A DNA stretch of 64,000 nucleotides from Dudresnaya verticillata (Eukaryota): contig OZ374565.1 of the NCBI GenBank assembly GCA_977862235.1, positions 2,418,001 to 2,482,000 on the forward strand. The letters are read 5' to 3'. Shown here piece after piece: positions 741 through 59,585 of this stretch. The notes below the pieces were generated by a model. It saw only the letters and a list, made by a program, of their open reading frames with translations, was not told where the DNA came from and ran no database searches. The position numbers were made by a program, and so were the translations under genes. Numbering within the stretch: the first letter of the stretch is position 1; each line of letters begins with the position of its first letter.

Positions 741-748
741 TTTAAATA
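741..748 (+). promoter_or_regulatory. TATA-like element upstream of the 5S gene (present upstream of every 5S 5' end)
   Basis: TTTAAATA at -31 to -24 relative to the 5S start at 772, the usual position for upstream TATA-like motifs of 5S genes. Confidence 0.65.
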
Positions 749-771: not shown

Positions 772-892
772 ACATTCGGCCATACTACGCAGACATGCTC
801 CGTATCCCATCCCGAACTGCGAAGATAAGTCTCGTCAGGCTGGTTTAGTACTGAGGTGAGGGATCACTCTGGAATCGCCAGTGCCGAATGTT
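772..892 (+). rRNA. 5S rRNA gene, intact
   Basis: About 121 nt. 5' ACATTCGGC pairs with 3' GCCGAATGT (helix I). Conserved eukaryotic 5S motifs GGCCATAC, ATCCCATCCCGAACT, GAAG-TAAG, TTAGTACT and GTGA-GGGA-TCAC (GNRA loop D). Followed by a T-run. Confidence 0.96.
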
Positions 893-3189: not shown

Positions 3190-3278
3190 ACATTCGGCCA
3201 TACTACGCAGACATGCTCCGTATCCCATCCCGAACTGCGAAGATAAGTCTCGTCAGGCTGGTTTAGTACTGAGGTGAG
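3190..3278 (+). pseudogene. 5S rRNA 5' part (nt 1-89), interrupted by E1+E2
   Basis: 5S sequence stops after TAGTACTGAGGTGAG; element sequence TTCAACTTT follows. Confidence 0.95.
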
Positions 3279-3379
3279 TTCAACTTTATAACAGGTGACC
3301 ATATTCTAATATTTGTCGACGTACAATCTACTGTAGTATCACAACAAAGTTAAACCCCAACTCAAAACAACTTGCACAT

Positions 3380-6300
3380 CTACACCTCCTGTTGGATCCC
3401 TTCCATCAGGCACTTGACGTTGTTCTGCACCAGTCGCGCCGCGTGCCTGTGGAATAGAGCCGCTCGCGAAACACCGCGAGTTACCATGGCCCGAGAAGCC
3501 ACAGTATCCGCCAACTCTTGCATGTACTTGTGCGCCTCCGGGTGCCAGCCACCTAGTGTGGTCATCGGCACCGGCACAAGTCTTGCCCCCGGTCCGGCAG
3601 CCTGGATGAAGCCACGGTAAGTCCGCACCTTGTCAGCGTGGGCGTTCTTCAGCGTCCCTTGCGGGTTTGTTATGCAGCTGAGAATGCGTTGTTCTGACGA
3701 CAGTGGATGACTGATTGTGACGTCCAGGTAGTCCGTTCCTCCTTCTGTTCCAAGCGCCTTGATGTCCGGCCGATCCAGGTGAGCCCCCACAGGGCGGGGC
3801 TCCACAATCGGGGTGCGTGTCGCACGTTTCAGATCCGAAGCCAGCAGACGAACCTGAGAGTCGTGGCGCCACGACCGAGGAGATCCGCTGTTCCGCATGC
3901 CGTTCGGACAAATCAGCAGATGGTCGCCGTGAACATCCATCTTCTTCTTGCACCCGGCCCGAGGACACTCCGTGTCGGGTTCCAGCAGTGGAATCCGACA
4001 GTAGAATCGAAGCCATACGCGGTAGTCCCGATCCGCAATGTACGTCTTCATGCCTGGTGCCGGCTGGCACTTGAGCCAGTCCTTGGCGCCCGGCACGCCA
4101 AGGGAAGCTCGGAAAGCTTGAGTCCGCCTGTCCCCGAGCGGCAGCTCGGCCTGCACCTTCTTCAGTACCAACTGCGTCAAGTCCCGCTGGCGCGGGCACT
4201 CGTCGCTGTCGATCTTCTCCAGGTCCAGGGCATCCTCACTATGGCACTTGGCGCTCCAGTCTTCGTGCGCTTCTACTGCAAAAGGATCGTCAGAAAGAGC
4301 AGTGTTCACAGAAGCGGGTAAGATAGAACGCAGTAAGTTGCGGGTCAGTGAAAGGGACGCCAAAAACGCGCTCGAGTTCATGTCGCCAGCTCCCGAAATA
4401 CCGATTCCGAAGCTGGGCTCTTTCGTGCGCAGGGGAAGCTGAAGTTCGCGGAAGGTGTCCCTCGGTAGGACTCCTCCCACGAGCTTGCGCATGCAAGCCT
4501 CAATCTTCTGGTCGAAGAGCTCGGCGCCCTTCGCCGTGGCGGATGATGGAACTACTCGCAGCAGGTAGTTCAGCCGGCAGACTCCGGCACAGTTGCGGAG
4601 TAGAGTGATGGCCACGTGTAGGTCTTCTAGTCCCGAAATTGCGTCCAGCAGGGGCTGGATGGACTCGACATGGCCATTCACGCTCTCCTCCATGTAGTTC
4701 TGCGTTCCAATCGGAGCCTGAAGTACTGTAGTGCCTTCTCCGTAGCTCTGCCCAAGATCCGACGGGTAGGCAGCGCAGTCTTCTGGGTCGGGTGCAGTAG
4801 GCCACCAAACAGTACACTTGTCCATGCGCAGGTGGAAGCCATAGCCCTTAGCTTCCTCGGAGTCAAAGAAGGACAGAACCTTCCTGAGTACGGCGTGTTT
4901 CGCCACGATGACGCCGTCGTCCAGGTAGAACAGTGACAGCAGCAAGTTGTTCGCCCCCTCCGCTTGCTGATTGCGGCCCGAGCGCCGCAGGTCGGCGGTG
5001 AGTTCCTTCAACTGTTTGATCAGTGCCTGCAGCACCAAAGCAAACAGTAACGGCCCGAGCGGGTCACCTTGCTGTACACCAGTGACACTCCGCAGTAGAG
5101 TGTCACCCATCCACAGGTGCGGGCCCTCAGAGTCATAACAGTATCTGACCCACGGTAGTAGTTCAGGCATATGTCGGCGGACCTCCTTCATGAATGCTTT
5201 GCGGCTGACAAGGTTGAAGGCATTCTTCAAGTCCACTTGTAGCAACCCGTAGGACTTGTCATGGCCGTGAGACTTCTGCAGCTTCCGGACCGCGTGTACA
5301 ATGGCTTCTGTGCCGCCCGAGGTTGCGACCCCGAGCTGAAGCGGTTCGAGGTATGCCTTGGCCTTGGGAGCGACTCTGGTCATGAGCATAGAGCTCACGA
5401 GTCGTCGGATTGTCTCTCCTACAGCAATGGGGCGGACACCGCCGGTGCGCTTCTTCAGAGCCGTGAGAGGAGCGCTGGCAATCCAAGGCGACAGCTCCGC
5501 AGGTCCTGCGCCGCTGGCCAGCACGTTGACCATTTTGGTGAGCCCGCCAAGCAGGCCCGTGTGCTCGTGAGTGGTCGGGACTGAGAGCAGTTCCTGCAGA
5601 TGGGTCGGTGATAGTCCTGTGCCCCCCGAGGCCGAAGCCCGGGGGAACTTGGCAACTGCTTTTCGTACTTCGTCGGCTGTGAAAGGCACGAAGTCAGGGA
5701 TGGTCGGCAGCGGTTCGGACTGGTCAAGCTCGTGGTCCGCGTCGGTTTGCGGTACGGACTGTGGGTGCTTGTCCTTCATGGACTGTATCACAGAGTCTGT
5801 GGCTGGCGCGATTCCATCAGAGTCTAGAGCTGCTGCTGCCTTACTGTAGGCGCCCTCCTTTGCGAGGCGAAGGGCTCGTGAGGCGTTGATACGGCGTTGC
5901 TCTTCTGCGGAAGGCGCAGTCTGCTCACGGAATGTCGAGCCCTTCAAGGCCTCCTGCCATAGGGCGTCGTAATCCTTGAGTCCCCAGCGGCGGATTCGAT
6001 CGCGGAAGGTGCCGATCGAGGACGCAGAGGTTGACGCGCCGGCCCTTGCACTCGCCGCGGGAGGATTGGACAAGACGGCTGCTGGAAAAAGCAGGAATGC
6101 AGTGAGCTCTTTGGTGGCTTCCTGAGAGTTGTTTGCGTTCGTAAAAGCCCATACCGTCTTGGACAGTGCGTCGCGCACCTCTGCGCGGACGCGAGACGGT
6201 ATATGTGTGACCATAGGGATATGCGAGCGACAGATATCTTCGACCGCCGGCAGAAGCTGCCCTCCTGGACCCCGCGCAGCGTGTCGGGTTTGCGCAGTTG

Positions 6301-6868
6301 GTACCACTTGAGTAGCTGGTACCGGTGCAGGAGGCGGCTCCTGGCTGTCCGGGATTCGTCGCGGGGCTGGCAGGATATCGTCCGCCGGCTCGCCGTCCTC
6401 GGGTTGCGTCTCCGTGACCGCGTCCAGAGCAGGAGTCTGTGATGGCGCGGCTACAGTTTCTTCACGGCTCGGTGTCGTCAATTGGTTGGACGGGACGTGG
6501 GAGAACGCCGGAGTGCGAGTGGCGGGACATGCGCTGCAATTCTTGTACCGCATACTGTACATGCCTTCACTGTTCATGCGGGAGCTACAGTGGGTAGGCA
6601 TGTACTTGTTGTGAGTCACACAGTACCATACTCCATAGTCCAGGAGCTGCTGCTTGAGAGGCTCGATGTCGGTCCTCGTCGGTGGTCCTCGCCTGCCAGG
6701 AACATGCATCTTCCGCAGGTGCATGAGTAGCGCTTCTACAGTAGGCAGTGAGGACGACTGGCAGCCCAGAGGACAGCTGGTACTGTTTGTCGGGCGGTGT
6801 TTTGCCGAAGGCATAAAGCATGGAGAGAGCCATACCTTCGGCATGTCGGGGTGCTGCTGACCAATCAT
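3380..6868 (-). CDS. Retrotransposon protein, 1162 aa: C2H2 ZnF, reverse transcriptase, CCHC knuckle, restriction-like endonuclease
   Basis: C-x3-C-x13-H-x4-H at aa 32-55; RT motifs GVRPIAVGETIRRL, QLGV, DLKNAFN, GVQQGDPLGPLLF, YLDD; CPRAGC...HLLIC knuckle; RHD...E...RPDI...YLDVTI endonuclease. Confidence 0.95.
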   Translation of the reverse strand: MIGQQHPDMPKVWLSPCFMPSAKHRPTNSTSCPLGCQSSSLPTVEALLMHLRKMHVPGRRGPPTRTDIEPLKQQLLDYGVWYCVTHNKYMPTHCSSRMNSEGMYSMRYKNCSACPATRTPAFSHVPSNQLTTPSREETVAAPSQTPALDAVTETQPEDGEPADDILPAPRRIPDSQEPPPAPVPATQVVPTAQTRHAARGPGGQLLPAVEDICRSHIPMVTHIPSRVRAEVRDALSKTVWAFTNANNSQEATKELTAFLLFPAAVLSNPPAASARAGASTSASSIGTFRDRIRRWGLKDYDALWQEALKGSTFREQTAPSAEEQRRINASRALRLAKEGAYSKAAAALDSDGIAPATDSVIQSMKDKHPQSVPQTDADHELDQSEPLPTIPDFVPFTADEVRKAVAKFPRASASGGTGLSPTHLQELLSVPTTHEHTGLLGGLTKMVNVLASGAGPAELSPWIASAPLTALKKRTGGVRPIAVGETIRRLVSSMLMTRVAPKAKAYLEPLQLGVATSGGTEAIVHAVRKLQKSHGHDKSYGLLQVDLKNAFNLVSRKAFMKEVRRHMPELLPWVRYCYDSEGPHLWMGDTLLRSVTGVQQGDPLGPLLFALVLQALIKQLKELTADLRRSGRNQQAEGANNLLLSLFYLDDGVIVAKHAVLRKVLSFFDSEEAKGYGFHLRMDKCTVWWPTAPDPEDCAAYPSDLGQSYGEGTTVLQAPIGTQNYMEESVNGHVESIQPLLDAISGLEDLHVAITLLRNCAGVCRLNYLLRVVPSSATAKGAELFDQKIEACMRKLVGGVLPRDTFRELQLPLRTKEPSFGIGISGAGDMNSSAFLASLSLTRNLLRSILPASVNTALSDDPFAVEAHEDWSAKCHSEDALDLEKIDSDECPRQRDLTQLVLKKVQAELPLGDRRTQAFRASLGVPGAKDWLKCQPAPGMKTYIADRDYRVWLRFYCRIPLLEPDTECPRAGCKKKMDVHGDHLLICPNGMRNSGSPRSWRHDSQVRLLASDLKRATRTPIVEPRPVGAHLDRPDIKALGTEGGTDYLDVTISHPLSSEQRILSCITNPQGTLKNAHADKVRTYRGFIQAAGPGARLVPVPMTTLGGWHPEAHKYMQELADTVASRAMVTRGVSRAALFHRHAARLVQNNVKCLMEGIQQEV

Positions 6869-7542
6869 GGTTACAGCGCTGGGTAAGGTACCTGTAAAGG
6901 TCCTCTACAGTAGGTTCCCACGGGGCACAGACCTCCTAACCGGGACGCAAGCCTGTCGTCCGTCGTCAGTCTGTTCGGGACACCTCCAGAGGGTGCTACA
7001 GGTGGCCTTGCTGCGAGATGAAGGCCTCTTCGCAGCGTAGGGCGCGAGATCGCGCAATTTGCGCACGAGCTCGCGCAAAAGGGCGCGCGTGTTAGCGTTC
7101 GTGCGCGTAGACTTATCGGACGTTCCCTTCCCTGCCGCAGCTGAGAAGACTCTCTTCACTGCGGTCCTGTAACGCGCGGTACTTCTCGTTTGCACAAGCT
7201 CTCAATGGGGTCGCAGAACCACCGTTTACCTGTGAGTGCCCACAGGATTTTTGGCCTCCCCCGAAGGTTCGCTGGCAGGACGTTCGCTCGATCTTAGAAG
7301 GGGTGGTTTCAAAACAGGATCCACCAGGCTTAAGCCACGTTACCCCAACTTCGACGTTGCTTGGCACGTTTCTGCGATGAGCTTGTGGGTCACGAGCCGC
7401 CTACCACTCAAGGTCGAGGGTCTTTGGCGATTCCCACACTTGTAGGTCTCTCGGCACTTCCCGAAGGAAGATTTTACAGGACAAGCCTGGCCTTTACCAA
7501 TCTGTCAGTTGAAGGGTGTGAAACCCCTCTGTCGACAGTCCA

Positions 7543-7573
7543 CGGCAGCCTAGACAGAGTCTAGGCTGTGCCG
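7543..7573 (-). other. Strong hairpin in element 5' UTR (all copies retaining the 5' UTR)
   Basis: Perfect 10-bp inverted repeat CAGCCTAGAC-AGA-GTCTAGGCTG, extended by CGG/CCG after a 2-nt bulge. Confidence 0.7.
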
Positions 7574-7608
7574 GGTACAAGCAAAACGCGTACAGGGCCA
7601 GGGAAAGA

Positions 7609-7654
7609 AAGATAAGTCAGTGGGGCCCGGGCAAATTTCAAGGTGAGGGATCAC
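7609..7654 (+). promoter_or_regulatory. 5S internal control region mimic (Box A / IE / Box C) in the element 5' UTR
   Basis: AAGATAAGTC = 5S nt 51-60 and AGGTGAGGGATCAC = 5S nt 83-96, separated by 22 nt in both; GG of 5S nt 71-72 is also retained. Confidence 0.75.
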
Positions 7655-7688
7655 CTTAAAAGTAAGCGCAAAATAGGAAACGCGTGAC

Positions 7689-7740
7689 CGTCGGCGACGA
7701 CGGCGGCGGCGACGGCGGCGACGACGACGGCGTCGCGGCG
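7689..7740. repeat. GC-rich GAC/GGC trinucleotide tract in the element 5' UTR
   Basis: CGTCGGCGACGACGGCGGCGGCGACGGCGGCGACGACGACGGCGTCGCGGCG; present in the nine complete full-length copies (one SNP in E3). Confidence 0.8.
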
Positions 7741-7938
7741 CAGATCGGCGGCGCGGAAAGAGACAAAAGTAGACCGCGCTCGCCCGCCCGCGAAGGTGAA
7801 GGGCTGAAAAACCCCGCACCGACGCGCCGTCGCGCGCTCGAACAGGCGGCACCGCCGCCGAAAAGATCGGTGCAGAGCTTGTTGAGATATCCGCGAAACA
7901 AAAATTTCGGCAGATCGCTGAGGGAGTACTGAGGTGAG

Positions 7939-10900: not shown

Positions 10901-12590
10901 CGACCGCCGGCAGAAGCTGCCCTCCTGGACCCCGCGCAACGGGTGGGGTTTGCGCAGTTGGTACCTCTCGAGTAGCAGGTACCGGTGCAGGAGGCGGCTC
11001 CTGGCTGTCCGGGATTCGTCGCGGGGCTGGCAGGATATCGTCCGCTGGCTCGCCGTCCTCGGGTTGCGTCTCCGTGACCGCGTCCAGAGCAGGAGACTGT
11101 GATGGCGCGGCTACAGTTTCTTCACGGCTCGGTGTCGTCAATTGGTTGGACGGGACGTGGGAGAACGCCGGAGTGCGAGTAGCGGGACATGCGCTGCAAT
11201 TCTTGTACCGCATACTGTACATGCCTTCACTGTTCATGCGGGAGCTACAGTGGGTGGGCATGTACTTGTTGTGAGTCACACAGTACCATACTCCATAGTC
11301 CAGGAGCTGCTGCTTGAGAGGCTCGATGTCGGTCCTCGTCGGTGGTCCTCGCCTGCCAGGAACATGCATCTTCCGCAGGTGCATGAGTAGCGCTTCTACA
11401 GTAGGCAGTGAGGACGACTGGCAGCCCAGAGGACAGCTGGTACTGTTTGTCGGGCGGTGTTTTGCCGAAGGCATAAAGCATGGAGAGAGCCATACCTTCG
11501 GCATGTCGGGGTGCTGCTGACCAATCATGGTTACAGCGCTGGGTAAGGTACCTGTAAAGGTCCTCTACAGTAGGTTCCCACGGGGCACAGACCTCCTAAC
11601 CGGGACGCAAGCCTGTCGTCCGTCGTCAGTCTGTTCGGGACACCTCCAGAGGGTGCTACAGGTGGCCTTGCTGCGAGATGAGGGCCTCTTCGCAGCGTAG
11701 GGCGCGAGATCGCGCACTTTGCGCACGAGCTCGCGCAAAAGGGCGCGCGTGTTAGCGTTCGTGCGCGCAGAGTTATCGGACGTTCCCTTCCCTGCCGCAG
11801 CTGAGAAGACTCTCTTCACTGCGGTCCTGTAACGCGCGGTACTTCTCGTTTGCACAAGCTCTCAATGGGGTCGCAGAACCACCGTTTACCTGTGAGTGCC
11901 CACAGGATTTTTGGCCTCCCCCGAAGGTTCGCTGGCAGGACGTTCGCTCGATCTTAGAAGGGGTGGTTTCAAAACAGGATCCACCAGGCTTAAGCCACGT
12001 TACCCCAACTTCGACGTTGCTTGGCACGTTTCTGCGATGAGCTTGTGGGTCACGAGCCGCCTACCACTCAAGGTCGAGGGTCTTTGGCGATTCCCACACT
12101 TGTAGGTCTCTCGGCACTTCCCGAAGGAAGATTTTACAGGACAAGCCTGGCCTTTGCCAATCTGTCAGTTGAAGGGTGTGAAACCCCTCTGTCGACAGTC
12201 CACGGCAGCCTAGACAGAGTCTAGGCTGTGCCGGGTACAAGCAAAACGCGTACAGGGCCAGGGAAAGAAAGATAAGTCAGTGGGGCCCGGGCAAATTTCA
12301 AGGTGAGGGATCACCTTAAAAGTAAGCGCAAAATAGGAAACGCGTGACCGTCGGCGACGACGGCGGCGGCGACGGCGGCGACGACGACGGCGTCGCGGCG
12401 CAGATCGGCGGCGCGGAAAGAGACAAAAGTAGACCGCGCTCGCCCGCCCGCGAAGGTGAAGGGCTGAAAAACCCCGCACCGACGCGCCGTCGCGCGCTCG
12501 AACAGGCGGCACCGCCGCCGAAAAGATCGGTGCAGAACTTGCTGAGAAATCTCCGAAACAAAAAATTCGGCAGATCGCGAGGGGTCCTCC
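7939..12590 (-). mobile_element. E2: full-length copy, head-to-tail with E1
   Basis: Same 3' end after AGTACTGAGGTGAG; type-B 5' end ending in GAGGGGTCCTCC. Confidence 0.93.
8040..11528 (-). CDS. RT-RLE retrotransposon protein, 1162 aa (E2)
   Basis: Intact ORF with the same motifs as E1. Confidence 0.95.
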   Translation of the reverse strand: MIGQQHPDMPKVWLSPCFMPSAKHRPTNSTSCPLGCQSSSLPTVEALLMHLRKMHVPGRRGPPTRTDIEPLKQQLLDYGVWYCVTHNKYMPTHCSSRMNSEGMYSMRYKNCSACPATRTPAFSHVPSNQLTTPSREETVAAPSQSPALDAVTETQPEDGEPADDILPAPRRIPDSQEPPPAPVPATREVPTAQTPPVARGPGGQLLPAVEDICRSHIPMVTHIPSRVRAEVRDALSKTVWAFTNATNSQEATKELTAFLLFPAAVLSNPPAASARASASTSASSIGTFRDRIRRWGLKDYDALWQEALKGSTFREQTAPSAEEQRRINASRALRLAKEGAYSKAAAALDSDGIAPATDSVIQSMKDKHPQSVPQTDADHELDQSEPLPTMPDFVPFTADEVRKAVAKFPRASASGGTGLSPTHLQELLSVPTTHEHTGLLGGLTKMVNVLASGAGPAELSPWIASAPLTALKKRTGGVRPIAVGETIRRLVSSMLMTRVAPKAKAYLEPLQLGVATSGGTEAIVHAVRKLQKSHGHDKSYGLLQVDLKNAFNLVSRKAFMKEVRRHMPELLPWVRYCYDSEGPHLWMGDTLLRSVTGVQQGDPLGPLLFALVLQALIKQLKELTADLRRSGRNQQAEGANNLLLSLFYLDDGVIVAKHAVLRKVLSFFDSEEAKGYGFHLRMDKCTVWWPTAPDPEDCAAYPSDLGQSYGEGTTVLQAPIGTQNYMEESVNGHVESIQPLLDAISGLEDLHVAITLLRNCAGVCRLNYLLRVVPSSATAKGAELFDQKIEACMRKLVGGVLPRDTFRELQLPLRTKEPSFGIGISGAGDMNSSAFLASLSLTRNLLRSILPASVNTALSDDPFAVEAHEDWSAKCHSEDALDLEKIDSDECPRQRDLTRLVLKKVQAELPLGDRRTQAFRASLGVPGAKDWLKCQPAPGMKTYIADRDYRVWLRFYCRIPLLEPDTECPRAGCKKMMDVHGDHLLICPNGMRNSGSPRSWRHDSQVRLLASDLKRATRTPIVEPRPVGAHLDRPDIKALGTEGGTDYLDVTISHPLSSEQRILSCITNPQGTLKNAHADKVRTYRGFIQAAGPGARLVPVPMTTLGGWHPEAHKYMQELADTVASRAMVTRGVSRAALFHRHAARLVQNNVKCLMEGIQQEV

Positions 12591-12621
12591 AGTACTATAG
12601 TACTGAGGTGAGGGATCACTC

Positions 12622-12667
12622 AGTACTGAGGTGAGGGATCACTCTGGAATCGCCAGTGCCGAATGTT
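12622..12667 (+). pseudogene. 5S rRNA 3' part after E1+E2 (includes duplicated target)
   Basis: AGTACTGAGGTGAGGGATCACTCTGG...GCCGAATGT followed by the T-run. Confidence 0.93.
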
Positions 12668-24000: not shown

Positions 24001-25750
24001 CGGCGCGGACGCGAGACGGTATATGTGTGACCATAGGGATATGCGAGCGACAGATGTCTTCGACCGCCGGCAGAAGCTGCCCTCCTGGACCCCGCGCAAC
24101 GGGTGGGGTTTGCGCAGTTGGTACCTCTCGAGTAGCAGGTACCGGTGCAGGAGGCGGCTCCTGGCTGTCCGGGATTCGTCGCGGGGCTGGCAGGATATCG
24201 TCCGCTGGCTCGCCGTCCTCGGGTTGCGTCTCCGTGACCGCGTCCAGAGCAGGAGACTGTGATGGCGCGGCTACAGTTTCTTCACGGCTCGGTGTCGTCA
24301 ATTGGTTGGACGGGACGTGGGAGAACGCCGGAGTGCGAGTAGCGGGACATGCGCTGCAATTCTTGTACCGCATACTGTACATGCCTTCACTGTTCATGCG
24401 GGAGCTACAGTGGGTGGGCATGTACTTGTTGTGAGTCACACAGTACCATACTCCATAGTCCAGGAGCTGCTGCTTGAGAGGCTCGATGTCGGTCCTCGTC
24501 GGTGGTCCTCGCCTGCCAGGAACATGCATCTTCCGCAGGTGCATGAGTAGCGCTTCTACAGTAGGCAGTGAGGACGACTGGCAGCCCAGAGGACAGCTGG
24601 TACTGTTTGTCGGGCGGTGTTTTGCCGAAGGCATAAAGCATGGAGAGAGCCATACCTTCGGCATGTCGGGGTGCTGCTGACCAATCATGGTTACAGCGCT
24701 GGGTAAGGTACCTGTAAAGGTCCTCTACAGTAGGTTCCCACGGGGCACAGGCCTCCTAACCGGGACGCAAGCCTGTCGTCCGTCGTCAGTCTGTTCGGGA
24801 CACCTCCAGAGGGTGCTACAGGTGGCCTTGCTGCGAGATGAGGGCCTCTTCGCAGCGTAGGGCGCGAGATCGCGCACTTTGCGCACGAGCTCGCGCAAAA
24901 GGGCGCGCGTGTTAGCGTTCGTGCGCGCAGAGTTATCGGACGTTCCCTTCCCTGCCGCAGCTGAGAAGACTCTCTTCACTGCGGTCCTGTAACGCGCGGT
25001 ACTTCTCGTTTGCACAAGCTCTCAATGGGGTCGCAGAACCACCGTTTACCTGTGAGTGCCCACAGGATTTTTGGCCTCCCCCGAAGGTTCGCTGGCAGGA
25101 CGTTCGCTCGATCTTAGAAGGGGTGGTTTCAAAACAGGATCCACCAGGCTTAAGCCACGTTACCCCAACTTCGACGTTGCTTGGCACGTTTCTGCGATGA
25201 GCTTGTGGGTCACGAGCCGCCTACCACTCAAGGTCGAGGGTCTTTGGCGATTCCCACACTTGTAGGTCTCTCGGCACTTCCCGAAGGAAGATTTTACAGG
25301 ACAAGCCTGGCCTTTACCAATCTGTCAGTTGAAGGGTGTGAAACCCCTCTGTCGACAGTCCACGGCAGCCTAGACAGAGTCTAGGCTGTGCCGGGTACAA
25401 GCAAAACGCGTACAGGGCCAGGGAAAGAAAGATAAGTCAGTGGGGCCCGGGCAAATTTCAAGGTGAGGGATCACCTTAAAAGTAAGCGCAAAATAGGAAA
25501 CGCGTGACCGTCGGCGACGACAGCGGCGGCGACGGCGGCGACGACGACGGCGTCGCGGCGCAGATCGGCGGCGCGGAAAGAGACAAAAGTAGACCGCGCT
25601 CGCCCGCCCGCGAAGGTGAAGGGCTGAAAAACCCCGCACCGACGCGCCGTCGCGCGCTCGAACAGGCGGCACCGCCGCCGAAAAGATCGGTGCAGAACTT
25701 GCTGAGAAATCTCCGAAACAAAAAATTCGGCAGATCGCGAGGGGTTCTCC
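21099..25750 (-). mobile_element. E3: full-length copy
   Basis: Same termini; type-B 5' end. Confidence 0.93.
21200..24688 (-). CDS. RT-RLE retrotransposon protein, 1162 aa (E3)
   Basis: Intact ORF. Confidence 0.95.
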   Translation of the reverse strand: MIGQQHPDMPKVWLSPCFMPSAKHRPTNSTSCPLGCQSSSLPTVEALLMHLRKMHVPGRRGPPTRTDIEPLKQQLLDYGVWYCVTHNKYMPTHCSSRMNSEGMYSMRYKNCSACPATRTPAFSHVPSNQLTTPSREETVAAPSQSPALDAVTETQPEDGEPADDILPAPRRIPDSQEPPPAPVPATREVPTAQTPPVARGPGGQLLPAVEDICRSHIPMVTHIPSRVRAEVRDALSKTVWAFTNTTNSQEATKELTAFLLFPAAVLSNPPAASARASASTSASSIGTFRDRIRRWGLKDYDALWQEALKGSTFREQTAPSAEEQRRINASRALRLAKEGAYSKAAAALDSDGIAPATDSVIQSMKDKHPQSVPQTDADHELDQSEPLPTMPDFVPFTADEVRKAVAKFPRASASGGTGLSPTHLQELLSVPTTHEHTGLLGGLTKMVNVLASGAGPAELSPWIASAPLTALKKRTGGVRPIAVGETIRRLVSSMLMTRVAPKAKAYLEPLQLGVATSGGTEAIVHAVRKLQKSHGHDKSYGLLQVDLKNAFNLVSRKAFMKEVRRHMPELLPWVRYCYDSEGPHLWMGDTLLRSVTGVQQGDPLGPLLFALVLQALIKQLKELTADLRRSGRNQQAEGANNLLLSLFYLDDGVIVAKHAVLRKVLSFFDSEEAKGYGFHLRMDKCTVWWPTAPDPEDCAAYPSDLGQSYGEGTTVLQAPIGTQNYMEESVNGHVESIQPLLDAISGLEDLHVAITLLRNCAGVCRLNYLLRVVPSSATAKGAELFDQKIEACMRKLVGGVLPRDTFRELQLPLRTKEPSFGIGISGAGDMNSSAFLASLSLTRNLLRSILPASVNTALSDDPFAVEAHEDWSAKCHSEDALDLEKIDSDECPRQRDLTRLVLKKVQAELPLGDRRTQAFRASLGVPGAKDWLKCQPAPGMKTYIADRDYRVWLRFYCRIPLLEPDTECPRAGCKKMMDVHGDHLLICPNGMRNSGSPRSWRHDSQVRLLASDLKRATRTPIVEPRPVGAHLDRPDIKALGTEGGTDYLDVTISHPLSSEQRILSCITNPQGTLKNAHADKVRTYRGFIQAAGPGARLVPVPMTTLGGWHPEAHKYMQELADTVASRAMVTRGVSRAALFHRHAARLVQNNVKCLMEGIQQEV

Positions 25751-25782
25751 GGGTACTGAGGTGAGGACTGAGGTCAGGTGAG

Positions 25783-28700
25783 TTCAACTTTATAACAGGT
25801 GGCCATATTCTAATATTTGTCGACGTACAATCTACTGTAGTATCACAACAAAGTTAAACCCCAACTCAAAACAACCTGCACATCTACACCTCCTGTTGGA
25901 TCCCTTCCATCAGGCACTTGACGTTGTTCTGCACCAGTCGCGCCGCGTGCCTGTGGAACAGAGCCGCTCGCGAAACACCGCGAGTTACCATGGCCCGAGA
26001 AGCCACGGTATCCGCCAACTCTTGCATATACTTGTGCGCCTCCGGGTGCCAGCCACCTAGTGTGGTCATCGGCACCGGCACAAGCCTTGCCCCCGGTCCG
26101 GCAGCCTGGATGAAGCCACGGTAAGTCCGCACCTTGTCAGCGTGGGCGTTCTTCAGCGTCCCTTGCGGGTTTGTTATGCAGCTGAGAATGCGTTGTTCTG
26201 ACGACAGTGGATGACTGATTGTGACGTCCAGGTAGTCCGTTCCTCCTTCTGTTCCAAGCGCCTTGATGTCCGGCCGATCCAAGTGAGCCCCCACAGGGCG
26301 GGGCTCCACAATCGGGGTGCGTGTCGCACGTTTCAGATCCGAAGCCAGCAGACGAACCTGAGAGTCGTGGCGCCACGACCGAGGAGATCCGCTGTTCCGC
26401 ATGCCGTTCGGACAAATCAGCAGATGGTCGCCGTGAACATCCATCATCTTCTTGCACCCGGCCCGAGGACACTCCGTGTCGGGTTCCAGCAGTGGAATCC
26501 GACAGTAGAATCGAAGCCATACGCGGTAGTCCCGATCCGCAATGTACGTCTTCATGCCTGGTGCCGGCTGGCACTTGAGCCAGTCCTTGGCGCCCGGCAC
26601 GCCAAGGGAAGCTCGGAAAGCTTGCGTCCGCCTGTCCCCGAGCGGCAGCTCGGCTTGCACTTTCTTCAGAACCAACCGCGTCAAGTCCCGCTGGCGCGGG
26701 CACTCGTCGCTGTCGATCTTCTCCAGGTCCAGGGCATCCTCACTATGGCACTTGGCGCTCCAGTCTTCGTGCGCTTCTACTGCAAAAGGATCGTCAGAAA
26801 GAGCAGTGTTCACAGAAGCGGGTAAGATAGAACGCAGTAAGTTGCGGGTCAGTGAAAGGGACGCCAAAAACGCGCTCGAGTTCATGTCGCCAGCTCCCGA
26901 AATACCGATTCCGAAGCTGGGCTCTTTCGTGCGCAGGGGAAGCTGAAGTTCGCGGAAGGTGTCCCTCGGTAGGACTCCTCCCACGAGCTTGCGCATGCAA
27001 GCCTCAATCTTCTGGTCGAAGAGCTCGGCGCCCTTTGCCGTGGCGGATGATGGAACTACTCGCAGCAGGTAGTTCAGCCGGCAGACTCCGGCACAGTTGC
27101 GGAGTAGAGTGATGGCCACGTGTAGGTCTTCTAGTCCCGAAATTGCGTCCAGCAGGGGCTGGATGGACTCGACATGGCCATTCACGCTCTCCTCCATGTA
27201 GTTCTGCGTTCCAATCGGAGCCTGAAGTACTGTAGTGCCTTCTCCGTAGCTCTGCCCAAGATCCGACGGGTAGGCAGCGCAGTCTTCTGGGTCGGGTGCA
27301 GTAGGCCACCAAACAGTACACTTGTCCATGCGCAGGTGGAAGCCATAGCCCTTAGCTTCCTCGGAGTCAAAGAAGGACAGAACCTTCCTGAGTACGGCGT
27401 GTTTCGCCACGATGACGCCGTCGTCCAGGTAGAACAGTGACAGCAGCAAGTTGTTCGCCCCCTCCGCTTGCTGATTGCGGCCCGAGCGCCGCAGGTCGGC
27501 GGTGAGTTCCTTCAACTGTTTGATCAGTGCCTGCAGCACCAAAGCAAACAGTAACGGCCCGAGCGGGTCACCTTGCTGTACACCAGTGACACTCCGCAGT
27601 AGAGTGTCACCCATCCACAGGTGCGGGCCCTCAGAGTCATAACAGTATCTGACCCACGGTAGTAGTTCAGGCATATGTCGGCGGACCTCCTTCATGAATG
27701 CTTTGCGGCTGACAAGGTTGAAGGCATTCTTCAAGTCCACTTGTAGCAACCCGTAGGACTTGTCATGGCCGTGAGACTTCTGCAGCTTCCGGACCGCGTG
27801 TACAATGGCTTCTGTGCCGCCCGAGGTTGCGACCCCGAGCTGAAGCGGTTCGAGGTATGCCTTGGCCTTGGGAGCGACTCTGGTCATGAGCATAGAGCTC
27901 ACGAGTCGTCGGATTGTCTCTCCTACAGCAATGGGGCGGACACCGCCGGTGCGCTTCTTCAGAGCCGTGAGAGGAGCGCTGGCAATCCAAGGCGACAGCT
28001 CCGCAGGTCCTGCGCCGCTGGCCAGCACGTTGACCATTTTGGTGAGCCCGCCAAGCAGGCCCGTGTGCTCGTGAGTGGTCGGGACTGAGAGCAGTTCCTG
28101 CAGATGCGTCGGTGATAGTCCTGTTCCCCCCGAGGCCGAAGCCCGGGGGAACTTGGCCACTGCTTTTCGTACTTCGTCGGCTGTGAAAGGCACGAAGTCA
28201 GGCATGGTCGGCAGCGGTTCGGACTGGTCAAGCTCGTGGTCCGCGTCGGTTTGCGGTACGGACTGCGGGTGCTTGTCCTTCATGGACTGTATCACAGAGT
28301 CTGTGGCTGGGGCGATTCCATCAGAGTCTAGAGCTGCTGCTGCCTTACTGTAGGCGCCCTCCTTTGCAAGGCGAAGGGCTCGTGAGGCATTGATACGGCG
28401 TTGCTCTTCTGCGGAAGGCGCAGTCTGCTCACGGAATGTCGAGCCCTTCAAGGCCTCCTGCCATAGGGCGTCGTAATCCTTGAGTCCCCAGCGTCGGATT
28501 CGATCGCGGAAGGTGCCGATCGAGGACGCAGAGGTTGACGCGCTGGCCCTTGCACTCGCCGCGGGAGGATTGGACAAGACGGCTGCTGGAAAAAGCAGGA
28601 ATGCAGTGAGCTCTTTGGTGGCTTCCTGAGAGTTGGTTGTGTTCGTAAAAGCCCATACCGTCTTGGACAGTGCGTCGCGCACCTCGGCGCGGACGCGAGA

Positions 28701-30434: not shown

Positions 30435-30469
30435 AGTCTCAGTCTGAGGTGAGGGAGTACTCAGGTGAG

Positions 30470-33400: not shown

Positions 33401-35108
33401 CCATAGGGATATGCGAGCGACAGATATCTTCGACCGGCGGCAGAAGCTGCCCTCCTGGACCCCGCGCAACGGGTGGGGTTTGCGCAGTTGGTACCTCTCG
33501 AGTAGCAGGTACCGGTGCAGGAGGCGGCTCCTGGCTGTCCGGGATTCGTCGCGGGGCTGGCAGGATATCGTCCGCTGGCTCGCCGTCCTCGGGTTGCGTC
33601 TCCGTGACCGCGACCAGAGCAGGAGTCTGTGATGGCGCGGCTACAGTTTCTTCACGGCTCGGTGTCGTCAATTGGTTGGACGGGACGTGGGAGAACGCCG
33701 GAGTGCGAGTGGCGGGACATGCGCTGCAATTCTTGTACCGCATACTGTACATGCCTTCACTGTTCATGCGGGAGCTACAGTGCGTAGGCATGTACTTGTT
33801 GTGAGTCACACAGTACCATACTCCATAGTCCAGGAGCTGCTGCTTGAGAGACTCGATGTCGGTCCTCGTCGGTGGTCCTCGCCTGCCAGGAACATGCATC
33901 TTCCGCAGGTGCATGAGTAGCGCTTCTACAGTAGGCAGTGAGGACGACTGGCAGCCCAGAGGACAGCTGGTACTGTTTGTCGGGCGGTGTTTTGCCAAAG
34001 GCATAAAGCATGGAGAGAGCCATACCTTCGGCATGTCGGGGTGCTGCTGACCAATCATGGTTACAGCGCTGGGTAAGGTACCTGTAAAGGTCCTCTACAG
34101 TAGGTTCCCACGGGGCACAGACCTCCTAACCGGGACGCAAGCCTGTCGTCCGTCGTCAGTCTGTTCGGGACACCTCCAGAGGGTGCTACAGGTGGCCTTG
34201 CTGCGAGATGAAGGCCTCTTCGCAGCGTAGGGCGCGAGATCGCGCAATTTGCGCACGAGCTCGCGCAAAAGGGCGCGCGTGTTAGCGTTCGTGCGCGTAG
34301 ACTTATCGGACGTTCCCTTCCCTGCCGCAGCTGAGAAGACTCTCTTCACTGCGGTCCTGTAACGCGCGGTACTTCTCGTTTGCACAAGCTCTCAATGGGG
34401 TCGCAGAACCACCGTTTACCTGTGAGTGCCCGCAGGATTTTTGGCCTCCCCCGAAGGTTCGCTGGCAGGACGTTCGCTCGATCTTAGAAGGGGTGGTTTC
34501 AAAACAGGATCCACCAGGCTTAAGCCACGTTACCCCAACTTCGACGTTGCTTGGCACGTTTCTGCGATGAGCTTGTGGGTCACGAGCCGCCTACCACTCA
34601 AGGTCGAGGGTCTTTGGCGATTCCCACACTTGTAGGTCTCTCGGCACTTCCCGAAGGAAGATTTTACAGGACAAGCCTGGCCTTTACCAATCTGTCAGTT
34701 GAAGGGTGTGAAACCCCTCTGTCGACAGTCCACGGCAGCCTAGACAGAGTCTAGGCTGTGCCGGGTACAAGCAAAACGCGTACAGGGCCAGGGAAAGAAA
34801 GACAAGTCAGTGGGGCCCGGGCAAATTTCAAGGTGAGGGATCACCTTAAAAGTAAGCGCAAAATAGGAAACGCGTGACCGTCGGCGACGACGGCGGCGGC
34901 GACGGCGGCGACGACGACGGCGTCGCGGCGCAGATCGGCGGCGCGGAAAGAGACAAAAGTAGACCGCGCTCGCCCGCCCGCGAAGGTGAAGGGCTGAAAA
35001 ACCCCGCACCGACGCGCCGTCGCGCGCTCGAACAGGCGGCACCGCCGCCGAAAAGATCGGTGCAGAACTTGTTGAGATATCCGCGAAACAAAAATTTCGG
35101 CAGATCGC
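30470..35108 (-). mobile_element. E5: full-length copy (variant subfamily)
   Basis: Same termini; 1-bp shorter 3' UTR; type-A 5' end. Confidence 0.93.
30570..34058 (-). CDS. RT-RLE retrotransposon protein, 1162 aa (E5)
   Basis: Intact ORF with diagnostic residues APTAKA, FIKE, WVTY, LWRS, VIMAK. Confidence 0.95.
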   Translation of the reverse strand: MIGQQHPDMPKVWLSPCFMPLAKHRPTNSTSCPLGCQSSSLPTVEALLMHLRKMHVPGRRGPPTRTDIESLKQQLLDYGVWYCVTHNKYMPTHCSSRMNSEGMYSMRYKNCSACPATRTPAFSHVPSNQLTTPSREETVAAPSQTPALVAVTETQPEDGEPADDILPAPRRIPDSQEPPPAPVPATREVPTAQTPPVARGPGGQLLPPVEDICRSHIPMVTHIPSRVRAEVRDALSKTVWAFTNATNSQEATKELTAFLLFPAAVLSNPPAASARASASTSASSIGTFRDRIRRWGLKDYDALWQQALKGSTFREQTAPSAEEQRRINASRALRLAKEGAYSKAAAALDSDGIAPATDSVIQSMKDKHPQSVPQTDADHELDQSEPLPTMPDFVPFTADEVRKAVAKFPRASASGGTGLSPTHLQELLSVPTTHEHTGLLGGLTKMVNVLASGAGPAELSPWIASAPLTALKKRTGGVRPIAVGETIRRLVSSMLMTRVAPTAKAYLEPLQLGVATSGGTEAIVHAVRKLQKSHGHDKSYGLLQVDLKNAFNLVSRKAFIKEVRRHMPELLPWVTYCYDSEGPHLWMGDTLLRSVTGVQQGDPLGPLLFALVLQALIKQLKELTADLWRSGRNQQAEGANNLLLSLFYLDDGVIMAKHAVLRKVLSFFDSEEAKGYGFHLRMDKCTVWWPTAPDPEDCAAYPSDLGQSYGEGTTVLQAPIGTQNYMEESVNGHVESIQPLLDAISGLEDLHVAITLLRNCAGVCRLNYLLRVVPSSATAKGAELFDQKIEVCMRKLVGGVLPRDTFRELQLPLRTKEPSFGIGISGAGDMNSSAFLASLSLTRNLLRSILPASVNTALSDDPFAVEAHEDWSAKCHSEDALDLEKIDSDECPRQRDLTRLVLKKVQAELPLGDRRTQAFRASLGAPGAKDWLKCQPAPGMKTYIADRDYRVWLRFYCRIPLLEPDTECPRAGCKKMMDVHGDHLLICPNGMRNSGSPRSWRHDSQVRLLASDLKRATRTPIVEPRPVGAHLDRPDIKALGTEGGTDYLDVTISHPLSSEQRILSCITNPQGTLKNAHADKVRTYRGFIQAAGPGARLVPVPMTTLGGWHPEAHKYMQELADTVASRAMVTRGVSRAALFHRHAARLVQNNVKCLMEGIQQEV

Positions 35109-44463: not shown

Positions 44464-45479
44464 TTCAACTTTATAACAGGTGACCATATTCTAATATTTG
44501 TCGACGTACAATCTACTGTAGTATCACAACAAAGTTAAACCCCAACTCAAAACAACCTGCACATCTACACCTCCTGTTGGATCCCTTCCATCAGGCACTT
44601 GACGTTGTTCTGCACCAGTCGCGCCGCGTGCCTGTGGAACAGAGCCGCTCGCGAAACACCGCGAGTTACCATGGCCCGAGAAGCCACGGTATCCGCCAAC
44701 TCTTGCATATACTTGTGCGCCTCCGGGTGCCAGCCACCTAGTGTGGTCATCGGCACCGGCACAAGCCTTGCCCCCGGTCCGGCAGCCTGGATGAAGCCAC
44801 GGTAAGTCCGCACCTTGTCAGCGTGGGCGTTCTTCAGCGTCCCTTGCGGGTTTGTTATGCAGCTGAGAATGCGTTGTTCTGACGACAGTGGATGACTGAT
44901 TGTGACGTCCAGGTAGTCCGTTCCTCCTTCTGTTCCAAGCGCCTTGATGTCCGGCCGATCCAAGTGAGCCCCCACCGGGCGGGGCTCCACAATCGGGGTG
45001 CGTGTCGCACGTTTCAGATCCGAAGCCAGCAGACGAACCTGAGAGTCGTGGCGCCACGACCGAGGAGATCCGCTGTTCCGCATGCCGTTCGGACAAATCA
45101 GCAGATGGTCGCCGTGAACATCCATCATCTTCTTGCACCCGGCCCGAGGACACTCCGTGTCGGGTTCCAGCAGTGGAATCCGACAGTAGAATCGAAGCCA
45201 TACGCGGTAGTCCCGATCCGCAATGTACGTCTTCATGCCTGGTGCCGGCTGGCACTTGAGCCAGTCCTTGGCGCCCGGCACGCCAAGGGAAGCTCGGAAA
45301 GCTTGCGTCCGCCTGTCCCCGAGCGGCAGCTCGGCTTGCACTTTCTTCAGAACCAACCGCGTCAAGTCCCGCTGGCGCGGGCACTCGTCGCTGTCGATCT
45401 TCTCCAGGTCCAGGGCATCCTCACTATGGCACTTGGCGCTCCAGTCTTCGTGCGCTTCTACTGCAAAAGGATCGTCAGA
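44464..45479 (-). mobile_element. E8: 5'-truncated copy (~1.0 kb)
   Basis: Intact 3' end; homology stops at AAAGGATCGTCAGA, then TCGTC and the target repeat. Confidence 0.92.
44565..45479 (-). pseudogene. C-terminal fragment of the retrotransposon ORF (CCHC + RLE only)
   Basis: Matches the C-terminal part of the 1162-aa protein; RT absent. Confidence 0.88.
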
Positions 45480-45498
45480 TCGTCAGTACTGAGGTGAG

Positions 45499-47821: not shown

Positions 47822-47823
47822 CG

Positions 47824-52000: not shown

Positions 52001-53681
52001 CTTCGACCGGCGGCAGAAGCTGCCCTCCTGGACCCCGCGCAACGGGTGGGGTTTGCGCAGTTGGTACCTCTCGAGTAGCAGGTACCGGTGCAGGAGGCGG
52101 CTCCTGGCTGTCCGGGATTCGTCGCGGGGCTGGCAGGATATCGTCCGCTGGCTCGCCGTCCTCGGGTTGCGTCTCCGTGACCGCGACCAGAGCAGGAGTC
52201 TGTGATGGCGCGGCTACAGTTTCTTCACGGCTCGGTGTCGTCAATTGGTTGGACGGGACGTGGGAGAACGCCGGAGTGCGAGTGGCGGGACATGCGCTGC
52301 AATTCTTGTACCGCATACTGTACATGCCTTCACTGTTCATGCGGGAGCTACAGTGCGTAGGCATGTACTTGTTGTGAGTCACACAGTACCATACTCCATA
52401 GTCCAGGAGCTGCTGCTTGAGAGGCTCGATGTCGGTCCTCGTCGGTGGTCCTCGCCTGCCAGGAACATGCATCTTCCGCAGGTGCATGAGTAGCGCTTCT
52501 ACAGTAGGCAGTGAGGACGACTGGCAGCCCAGAGGACAGCTGGTACTGTTTGTCGGGCGGTGTTTTGCCGAAGGCATAAAGCATGGAGAGAGCCATACCT
52601 TCGGCATGTCGGGGTGCTGCTGACCAATCATGGTTACAGCGCTGGGTAAGGTACCTGTAAAGGTCCTCTACAGTAGGTTCCCACGGGGCACAGACCTCCT
52701 AACCGGGACGCAAGCCTGTCGTCCGTCGTCAGTCTGTTCGGGACACCTCCAGAGGGTGCTACAGGTGGCCTTGCTGCGAGATGAAGGCCTCTTCGCAGCG
52801 TAGGGCGCGAGATCGCGCACTTTGCGCACGAGCTCGCGCAAAAGGGCGCGCGTGTTAGCGTTCGTGCGCGTAGACTTATCGGACGTTCCCTTCCCTGCCG
52901 CAGCTGAGAAGACTCTCTTCACTGCGGTCCTGTAACGCGCGGTACTTCTCGTTTGCACAAGCTCTCAATGGGGTCGCAGAACCACCGTTTACCTGTGAGT
53001 GCCCGCAGGATTTTTGGCCTCCCCCGAAGGTTCGCTGGCAGGACGTTCGCTCGATCTTAGAAGGGGTGGTTTCAAAACAGGATCCACCAGGCTTAAGCCA
53101 CGTTACCCCAACTTCGACGTTGCTTGGCACGTTTCTGCGATGAGCTTGTGGGTCACGAGCCGCCTACCACTCAAGGTCGAGGGTCTTTGGCGATTCCCAC
53201 ACTTGTAGGTCTCTCGGCACTTCCCGAAGGAAGATTTTACAGGACAAGCCTGGCCTTTACCAATCTGTCAGTTGAAGGGTGTGAAACCCCTCTGTCGACA
53301 GTCCACGGCAGCCTAGACAGAGTCTAGGCTGTGCCGGGTACAAGCAAAACGCGTACAGGGCCAGGGAAAGAAAGATAAGTCAGTGGGGCCCGGGCAAATT
53401 TCAAGGTGAGGGATAACCTTAAAAGTAAGCGCAAAATAGGAAACGCGTGACCGTCGGCGACGACGGCGGCGGCGACGGCGGCGACGACGACGGCGTCGCG
53501 GCGCAGATCGGCGGCGCGGAAAGAGACAAAAGTAGACCGCGCTCGCCCGCCCGCGAAGGTGAAGGGCTGAAAAACCCCGCACCGACGCGCCGTCGCGCGC
53601 TCGAACAGGCGGCACCGCCGCCGAAAAGATCGGTGCAGAACTTGTTGAGATATCCGCGAAACAAAAATTTCGGCAGATCGC
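49043..53681 (-). mobile_element. E10: full-length solitary copy (variant subfamily)
   Basis: Flanked by the two 5S halves; type-A 5' end. Confidence 0.93.
49143..52631 (-). CDS. RT-RLE retrotransposon protein, 1162 aa (E10)
   Basis: Intact ORF. Confidence 0.95.
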   Translation of the reverse strand: MIGQQHPDMPKVWLSPCFMPSAKHRPTNSTSCPLGCQSSSLPTVEALLMHLRKMHVPGRRGPPTRTDIEPLKQQLLDYGVWYCVTHNKYMPTHCSSRMNSEGMYSMRYKNCSACPATRTPAFSHVPSNQLTTPSREETVAAPSQTPALVAVTETQPEDGEPADDILPAPRRIPDSQEPPPAPVPATREVPTAQTPPVARGPGGQLLPPVEDICRSHIPMVTHIPSRVRAEVRDALSKTVWAFTNATNSQEATKELTAFLLFPAAVLSNPPAASARASASTSASSIGTFRDRIRRWGLKDYDALWQEALKGSTFREQTAPSAEEQRRINASRALRLAKEGAYSKAAAALDSDGIAPATDSVIQSMKDKHPQSVPQTDADHELDQSEPLPTIPDFVPFTADEVRKAVAKFPRASASGGTGLSPTHLQELLSVPTTHEHTGLLGGLTKMVNVLASGAGPAELSPWIASAPLTALKKRTGGVRPIAVGETIRRLVSSMLMTRVAPTAKAYLEPLQLGVATSGGTEAIVHAVRKLQKSHGHDKSYGLLQVDLKNAFNLVSRKAFIKEVRRHMPELLPWVTYCYDSEGPHLWMGDTLLRSVTGVQQGDPLGPLLFALVLQALIKQLKELTADLWRSGRNQQAEGANNLLLSLFYLDDGVIMAKHAVLRKVLSFFDSEEAKGYGFHLRMDKCTVWWPTAPDPEDCAAYPSDLGQSYGEGTTVLQAPIGTQNYMEESVNGHVESIQPLLDAISGLEDLHVAITLLRNCAGVCRLNYLLRVVPSSATAKGAELFDQKIEVCMRKLVGGVLPRDTFRELQLPLRTKEPSFGIGISGAGDMNSSAFLASLSLTRNLLRSILPASVNTALSDDPFAVEAHEDWSAKCHSEDALDLEKIDSDECPRQRDLTRLVLKKVQAELPLGDRRTQAFRASLGAPGAKDWLKCQPAPGMKTYIADRDYRVWLRFYCRIPLLEPDTECPRAGCKKMMDVHGDHLLICPNGMRNSGSPRSWRHDSQVRLLASDLKRATRTPIVEPRPVGAHLDRPDIKALGTEGGTDYLDVTISHPLSSEQRILSCITNPQGTLKNAHADKVRTYRGFIQAAGPGARLVPVPMTTLGGWHPEAHKYMQELADTVASRAMVTRGVSRAALFHRHAARLVQNNVKCLMEGIQQEV

Positions 53682-53692
53682 TGAGGGAGTAC

Positions 53693-53721
53693 TCACTCTG
53701 GAATCGCCAGTGCCGAATGTT
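53693..53721 (+). pseudogene. 5S rRNA 3' part after E10 (lacks GGA, nt 90-92)
   Basis: Junction reads GAGGGAGTAC-TCACTCTGGAATC. Confidence 0.9.
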
Positions 53722-59550: not shown

Positions 59551-59585
59551 AGTCTCAGTCTGAGGTGAGGGAGTACTCAGGTGAG

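Follow-up and report, generated by a model that had tools for sequence, protein, structure and literature searches.

How a site-specific retrotransposon comes to carry, within its own 5' leader, a copy of the very sequence into which it inserts, and whether that copy acts as RNA, as DNA or not at all, is the question raised by the locus analysed here. The window, i.e. the whole 64-kb stretch of DNA under analysis, is a 5S rDNA array with a repeat of 1209 bp, in which 8 intact and 4 interrupted 5S rRNA genes were recognized with Rfam on the + strand; the host 5S rRNA is presumably red-algal. The window also contains 12 copies of a 4.64-kb CRE-like retrotransposon with a reverse transcriptase (RT) and a restriction-like endonuclease, 9 of them complete (4639-4640 bp), 2 truncated and 1 cut by the window end, and all of them lie antisense to 5S at one single insertion site inside the 5S C box. 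The 3' ends of the element start at one nucleotide in 12/12 cases, following GAGGTGAG, which belongs either to the 5S gene itself or to a junction with a repeat of it. A small share of one DNA sequencing run yielded two 151-nt pieces of the element, which did not cover the segment discussed below, together with a different 5S type. The features to which the analysis refers throughout are the following.

741..748, + strand: TATA-like TTTAAATA upstream of the native 5S gene (-31..-24)
772..892, + strand: intact host 5S gene, used as reference
3190..3278, + strand: interrupted 5S gene, left portion with the A box and one C-box half, adjoining the element 3' end
3279..7918, - strand: full-length copy 1 of the retrotransposon (4640 bp), lying antisense to 5S
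3380..6868, - strand: single ORF of the element, 1162 aa from the first ATG
6869..7918, - strand: 5' leader of the element, 1050 nt

The ORF protein bears an N-terminal C2H2 finger, an RT domain (PF00078), a CCHC knuckle and the restriction-like endonuclease motifs RHD/RPD (motifs read on copy 2, P0001), and the order and most spacings of these motifs match the CRE pattern in the available part of PMC12857005, three CCHC spacers being 1-3 residues longer. A SLACS-annotated protein is 26% identical to it across 987 aa, solved R2 proteins align with it in the RT region only, and the 23 proteins most closely related to it (36-57% identity) bear no functional name, P0002-P0006 being the closest (47-57%). 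The motifs and the SLACS match point to a CRE-like element. In a quick tree of 39 rows, which includes SLACS-annotated proteins and no R2, R4, NeSL or HERO references, the element and its nameless relatives form a 24-protein group with SH-aLRT 100. Precomputed Pfam labels assign extra domains to the relatives P0006, P0060 and P0093 (PF02902, PF09250 and PF00443/PF13423).

A single ORF with zinc finger, RT, CCHC and RHD..E..RPD..D motifs is what the element shares with CRE1/2, SLACS, CZAR, MoTeR and FoTeR, along with site-specific insertion in a repeated gene and a target duplication (CRE clade features as found in the available sections of PMC12857005, PMC12278014 and PMC4640811). The targets in the clade, however, are spliced-leader genes, combined with a poly(A) tail in the trypanosomatid members (PMC12278014), or telomeres, whereas the present element targets the 5S C box and lacks a poly(A) tail. 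As a CRE-like, 5S-specific family with intact ORFs and many young copies, it is a candidate tool for site-specific integration.

Two exact matches to 5S promoter boxes in the leader

The initial annotation of this DNA drew attention to a 14-mer in the leader, AGGTGAGGGATCAC, and the match is real: it follows the target exactly for 7 nt on either side of the insertion point and then stops. The accompanying estimate of its chance occurrence (~3e-5) holds as well, the value being 4e-5 with UTR composition, and any 14-mer of the 5S gene was present in 1/1500 Markov-simulated elements. Ten internal copies had been counted, of which 9 are exact and one carries a C>A change (53404-53417). Missed at that stage was a second exact 5S match, an A box lying in register with the 14-mer, so that the A-to-C spacing is 22 nt both in the native gene and in the element.

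7609..7618, + strand: A-box mimic AAGATAAGTC, identical to host 5S +51..+60
7619..7640, + strand: spacer of 22 nt, the native length, 6/22 identical to 5S, including GG at the position of the intermediate element
7641..7654, + strand: C-box mimic AGGTGAGGGATCAC, host 5S +83..+96 (about +81..+94 in standard numbering), spanning the insertion point 7+7

For an A box at precisely this position the chance is P ~5e-7, and for a 10-nt run anywhere along the diagonal it is ~9e-5. These two boxes, on one and the same diagonal, are the only exact matches of at least 8 nt between the 5S gene and the + strand of the element, and identity to 5S outside them, in register, amounts to 21/97, i.e. background. 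With native spacing the bipartite box score reaches 24/24 here and does not exceed 14 anywhere else on either strand; moreover, the box letters agree with the host 5S gene where the latter deviates from the Rfam consensus.

According to the available portions of PMC1950542, the 5S control region comprises an A box (+50..+64 in amphibians), an intermediate element (+67..+72) and a C box (+80..+97), and in yeast the control region is the C box at +81..+94, to which TFIIIA fingers 1-3 bind; the plant C box occupies positions 80-89 (PMC3409069, likewise in part). The 14-mer was placed at +81..+94 by way of the plant C box on the Rfam alignment, on the assumption that plant and yeast numbering agree, and under that numbering it is, by position, the minimal TFIIIA-binding C box. 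Since the numbering puts it there, the letters that have been kept would be those of promoter boxes and not those of the single-stranded RNA loops C and E, and, as the element targets the middle of the C box, the match has the cut at its centre. The A-box mimic spans only part of the amphibian box, the intermediate element is represented by GG alone, and a TATA-like box is absent from the corresponding place upstream of the mimic, where the sequence is G+C-rich; on TATA-like upstream regions the accessible text of PMC13578239 makes a general statement only.

Our preferred reading, to which we assign a probability of about 0.6, is that the 14-mer and the A box constitute a stripped, DNA-level copy of the host 5S internal promoter, likely to bind host TFIIIA and subsequently TFIIIC. 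The promoter model, to which the initial annotation had offered alternatives, is the one that best fits the data, and if it is true the element offers a naturally occurring minimal map of this host's TFIIIA site. A mimic of 5S RNA structure was considered and rejected, as the + strand around the mimic folds unlike 5S RNA (z -1.5).

Several lesser resemblances were recorded around these boxes. A possible degenerate second A-to-C copy lies 153 nt to the right, at 7755-7802 (28/50 identical, box score 14/24, within background); ACGCGT occurs on both sides of the mimic, at 7583-7589 and 7678-7685; and AGGTGA, the left half-site hexamer, recurs at 3293-3298, 14 nt inside the element 3' end and 21 nt after the native one, followed by letters that differ among copies.

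Related loci were collected by alignment scans as the best 80 of at least 467 metagenome loci, 1 viral locus and 8 genome loci, mostly distant. Neither a 5S gene nor an in-register mimic was found among 81 loci (the 80 metagenome loci and the viral one), an Rfam search of 20 of these 81 returned nothing, and the bipartite box pattern gave 0 matches in genome and viral contigs; a scan of metagenome contigs with a single protein returned no related locus. A 17-nt match to the 5S A-box region in two of the loci (L026:149-165 and 1339-1355; L032:8330-8346) was rejected, its surroundings not being 5S and Rfam recognizing nothing there. The stretch lies in a flanking repeat of these distant relatives, of which L026 has two copies 1190 bp apart.

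The hairpin and readings at the RNA level

The 14-mer had initially been described as folding into a 7-bp stem with a GGGA loop, which is right as a reading of the + strand; the RNA of the element, however, is the - strand, in which the predicted structure is longer and has a different loop.

7636..7661, - strand: predicted 11-bp hairpin with one G-U pair and a UCCC loop, -12.1 kcal/mol, enclosing the target-complementary segment

The prediction is identical in three folding contexts, in which the 10 stem bases of the 14-mer have an unpaired probability of 0.00-0.17. Four pairs of the stem derive from 5S helix IV; given this core, the extension of the stem has P ~0.007 (7 Watson-Crick pairs) or ~0.001 (11 pairs with G-U). 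The extension is unneeded for TFIIIA binding, and its significance (P ~0.001-0.007), which counts against the preferred reading, points to an extra constraint acting at the level of the RNA or of the palindrome. The hairpin would likely hide the complement of the target within the RNA, such that the nicked primer strand would be unable to prime there. That 12/12 insertions proceeded from the true 3' end accords with this notion, and strict recognition of the 3' end accounts for it equally well.

RNA-assisted target recognition, which the initial annotation had advanced as an alternative and in which the RNA segment would pair with the nicked strand in order to choose or hold the site, would matter more if it were right, but the evidence points away from it and we consider it very improbable. 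The complement is exact and symmetric about the cut, the 14-bp RNA duplex is predicted at -26.4 kcal/mol versus -12.1 for the hairpin, and R2 elements use short target homology; in R2, however, the homology is terminal and specificity is read by the protein (PMC10499050 and PMC13580325, as far as the available text of either goes), whereas the present segment sits 264 nt inside the 5' end, with ~4.4 kb between it and the priming end. What makes an RNA guide unlikely is that the segment is predicted to be locked in the 11-bp hairpin, that no junction uses it (priming occurs there in 0/12 3' junctions and joining in 0/11 visible 5' junctions) and that the in-register A box is left unexplained.

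Equally improbable is the idea that the RNA of the element pairs with 5S rRNA through both complementary segments and thereby tethers ribosomes or 5S particles. Co-folding of a 90-nt leader piece with naked 5S RNA gains ~14 kcal/mol, a value obtained with no shuffled control and predicted by complementarity as such. The longer match, however, falls on helix IV, a paired region of 5S RNA, loops C and E, which are open, are unmatched, and the segment in the element is itself contained in the hairpin.

Insertion junctions and variation among copies

Whether the element protein reads the two boxes is a matter on which the junctions bear, one of them being the following.

7919..7938, + strand: junction joining the tandem copies 1 and 2, with 14 nt of left-hand target at its end and no A box

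A repeat of the left target, 7-14 nt long, is found at 10/11 visible 5' junctions and is lost at 53698. The initial proposition that cleavage needs sequence beyond the 14-mer is borne out, inasmuch as 0/10 internal sites have received an insertion, which also upholds the earlier statement that none had, and 8/12 insertions (6 distinct junctions) abut regenerated junctions, i.e. A-box-less flanks with 7, 10 or 14 nt of left target. Extra junction sequence crosses the cut into the right half of 5S and never into the element 3' end; it is GGA at 7939, 30470, 59586 and before 53698, probably of one inherited origin, and 9 nt long before 12636. Because two junctions are duplicated exactly (25783 = 39808; 30470 = 59586), some of the tandems must be attributed to template jumping or recombination.

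These observations weigh on the possibility that the mimic is an operator or decoy, whereby the element protein would recognize a bipartite motif made up of A box and cut site and would bind the internal copy without cutting it, thus limiting transcription of the element. There is precedent in R2Bm, which recognizes the cut site together with a 13-bp motif at -34..-22, the spacing of the two being strict (available part of PMC10499050); here 30-39 nt separate the A box from the cut, the protein possesses an N-terminal C2H2 finger, and the internal site is palindromic and never cut. The A box, however, lies on the primer side, which is the side dispensable for R2Bm, the motif of the latter being located across the cut (PMC10499050, same portion), and the 8/12 insertions at A-box-less flanks speak against such a requirement, all the more as the extra junction sequence weakly favours the view that A-box-less sites were used. 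We regard an operator as improbable. Irrespective of the order in which two tandem copies were inserted, one of two pieces was missing from the site used, namely the A box or the right-hand C-box half, so that the mimic exceeds the needs of the element protein; this argument holds if the tandems are re-insertions and fails if template jumping or recombination made them.

The copies of the mimic themselves are not uniform, as the following examples illustrate.

12269..12314, + strand: mimic in copy 2, intact
34799..34844, + strand: mimic with an A-box T>C change, shared with the copy at 63915-63960
53372..53417, + strand: mimic with a C-box C>A change, which also breaks the hairpin

The mimic is intact in 7/10 copies (starting at 7609, 12269, 25429, 30113, 39454, 44138 and 59229) and has box mutations in 3/10, the two with the A-box T>C change being near-identical copies. 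Two of the 17 SNP sites in the leader fall inside the 24 box nucleotides, against an expectation of 0.4 (P ~0.06 for an excess). With 3/10 copies mutated and 2/17 SNP sites in the boxes, there is no sign of purifying selection in the window, which counts against the preferred reading, as do the scarcely preserved intermediate element, the missing TATA-like box and the absence of a 5S flank or a similar mimic from the 81 related loci; the box changes may have arisen after insertion.

This variation is among the points in favour of a non-functional relic, be it a captured and decayed 5S flank or a mosaic of target fragments from template jumps at 5' junctions. Junctions do accumulate and inherit target fragments, and the orientation of the mimic is consistent with a captured right-hand flank. 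Neutral decay, however, would not leave 10/10 and 14/14 identities at the boxes as opposed to 21/97 elsewhere, without an indel; capture is a plausible origin, but the retention of the boxes would go unexplained, and a mere relic appears decidedly improbable to us.

Other features of the copies were noted in passing. Copies 4-5 (25783-35108) and 11-12 (54899-64000) look as if a block of two elements had been duplicated, the junction being identical in both, copy 10 is seemingly recombinant between haplotypes, and copy 1 has 24 private SNPs. The 5' junctions at 7919-7938, 12579-12635, 25739-25782, 30423-30469 and 53682-53697 are mosaics of target fragments around an AGTACT palindrome, with pieces partly common to unrelated copies, which suggests that transcripts begin inside the junction and so transmit it. 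In both truncated copies (45476-45482 and 47815-47822) the terminal letters are CAGATCG, as at the true 5' end, at a point of CAGA(T) microhomology in the ORF, and this suggests a jump to the 5' terminus of the element or an internal deletion rather than simple truncation. Lastly, the first ~25 sense nucleotides of the element (12556-12572 in copy 2; 7896-7912 in copy 1) resemble the 5S 3' end and terminator, so that the right-hand target flank, at ~22-39 nt from the cut, recurs there in inverted form. One type of 5' end (5/9 ends) matches at 16/18 with one gap (shuffle P ~0.002) and the other (4/9) more weakly (P ~0.02); it is the best 5S-related match of the element after the 14-mer, half of it being a T-run, and the inverted copy could pair with the target flank during integration.

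Candidate uses of the mimic and known systems

The boxes face opposite to the element, and the leader, which is free of ATG (shuffle mean 5.8, P ~0.002), has 7 runs of T4+ in the first 340 nt of its sense strand, with one T-run ~15 nt from the start. Sense-strand transcription by polymerase III was rejected on account of these early T-runs; we infer that the element would be transcribed by polymerase II from its 5' end, and scanned. If so, the mimic is not the promoter of the element in the Cassandra sense, and because its boxes face the other way and the native upstream TATA-like box is missing, it is likely to be either a chromatin or regulatory platform or a driver of antisense RNA.

As regards the copied promoter as a platform, TFIIIA would recruit TFIIIC, which would place TFIIIB upstream of the mimic. 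The full 5S transcription complex protects about -45 to +120 in the excerpted text of PMC10245719; the bound complex would cover ~7515-7680, 240-400 bp inside the leader. As the likeliest single use we tentatively suggest that a TFIIIA/TFIIIC complex 265-310 bp into the leader could keep the promoter region open and restore the TFIIIA site destroyed by insertion, although the odds are somewhat against it. Rather unlikely is an antisense polymerase III RNA driven by the mimic, which would start near 7559, measure ~0.4 kb if the element is the last in the array, and end at the 5S terminator; the first T4 beyond the predicted start comes after 447 and 398 nt, at the 5S terminator, in the two full copies that are last in the array, and after 2634 nt in copy 1. 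Other uses, such as soaking up TFIIIA, seem far-fetched.

One overall scheme, doubtful as a whole, would make the element a self-compensating promoter parasite, which cuts the TFIIIA site of each 5S gene that it enters and brings along a minimal, host-matched replacement. The interrupted repeat would still load TFIIIA and TFIIIC, would stay in active 5S chromatin and would thereby license polymerase II transcription of the element from the opposite strand, with the RNA hairpin hiding the target copy from the primer. Mimicry of the 5S promoter has so far been described for non-autonomous elements that use the mimic for transcription; if the scheme is true, an autonomous site-specific retrotransposon destroys a 5S promoter and supplies a 24-nt backwards replacement, which would represent a second use of such mimicry. 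The question bears, more generally, on how restriction-like-endonuclease elements lying antisense in a polymerase III gene are transcribed.

Like the present element, Cassandra TRIMs, Ajax and the 5S-derived SINEs such as SINE3 carry host 5S A and C boxes, and in Cassandra the boxes are kept at fixed spacing, the sequence between them is variable and promoter variants of the host are mirrored (available parts of 10.1101/2023.07.14.548913 and PMC10946416). All of these are, however, non-autonomous, have ~70 bp or more of 5S similarity and use the promoter for their own transcription, whereas the element described here has an autonomous ORF, keeps 24 nt, carries its boxes antisense and inserts into the promoter that it has copied. 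Mutsu belongs to the Tx1 clade and has an apurinic-type endonuclease. It shares with the DNA transposon Dada-5S and with our element a sequence-specific insertion into 5S rRNA genes, but differs in its two ORFs and in its target, the 5' half of 5S genes in fish, and no internal promoter mimic is mentioned in the portions of the Mutsu and Dada-5S descriptions that were compared (PMC5340908, PMC8869645). R2 elements (R2Bm, R2Tg) resemble the element in having an RT and a restriction-like endonuclease and in target-primed insertion in an rRNA gene; unlike it, they target 28S, are alignable in the RT region alone and have no described copy of a target promoter. The table of a review lists 5S promoters in SINEs and TRIMs only, with Mutsu as a LINE inside 5S (PMC10946416, in the part available), and full-text literature searches, the retrieved text being partial, found neither a 5S-specific CRE-like element nor an antisense 5S promoter in an autonomous LINE; Repbase and the inventory of Fell et al. 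2025 (mentioned in PMC13580325), outside the scope of these searches, may list the family.

A regulatory parallel is offered by the tRNA A and B boxes of a divergent gene next to the trypanosomatid U3 gene, where polymerase III boxes in opposite orientation regulate their neighbour, as proposed via chromatin (accessible text of PMC2784804). Those boxes are of type 2 and lie upstream of the regulated gene, whereas here boxes of type 1 lie downstream of the presumed start of the element.

Some further characteristics of the leader deserve mention. An Rfam search of the leader recognized no ribozyme and no other family. An imperfect CGG/CGA microsatellite at 7692-7753 is reminiscent of the internal repeats reported for CRE-clade leaders, and the 5' 400 nt of the element fold better than shuffles (z -4.35). 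Centred near the predicted start at 7559 is a perfect 10-bp inverted repeat (7546-7568), and another palindrome is situated 20 nt before it (7529-7538).
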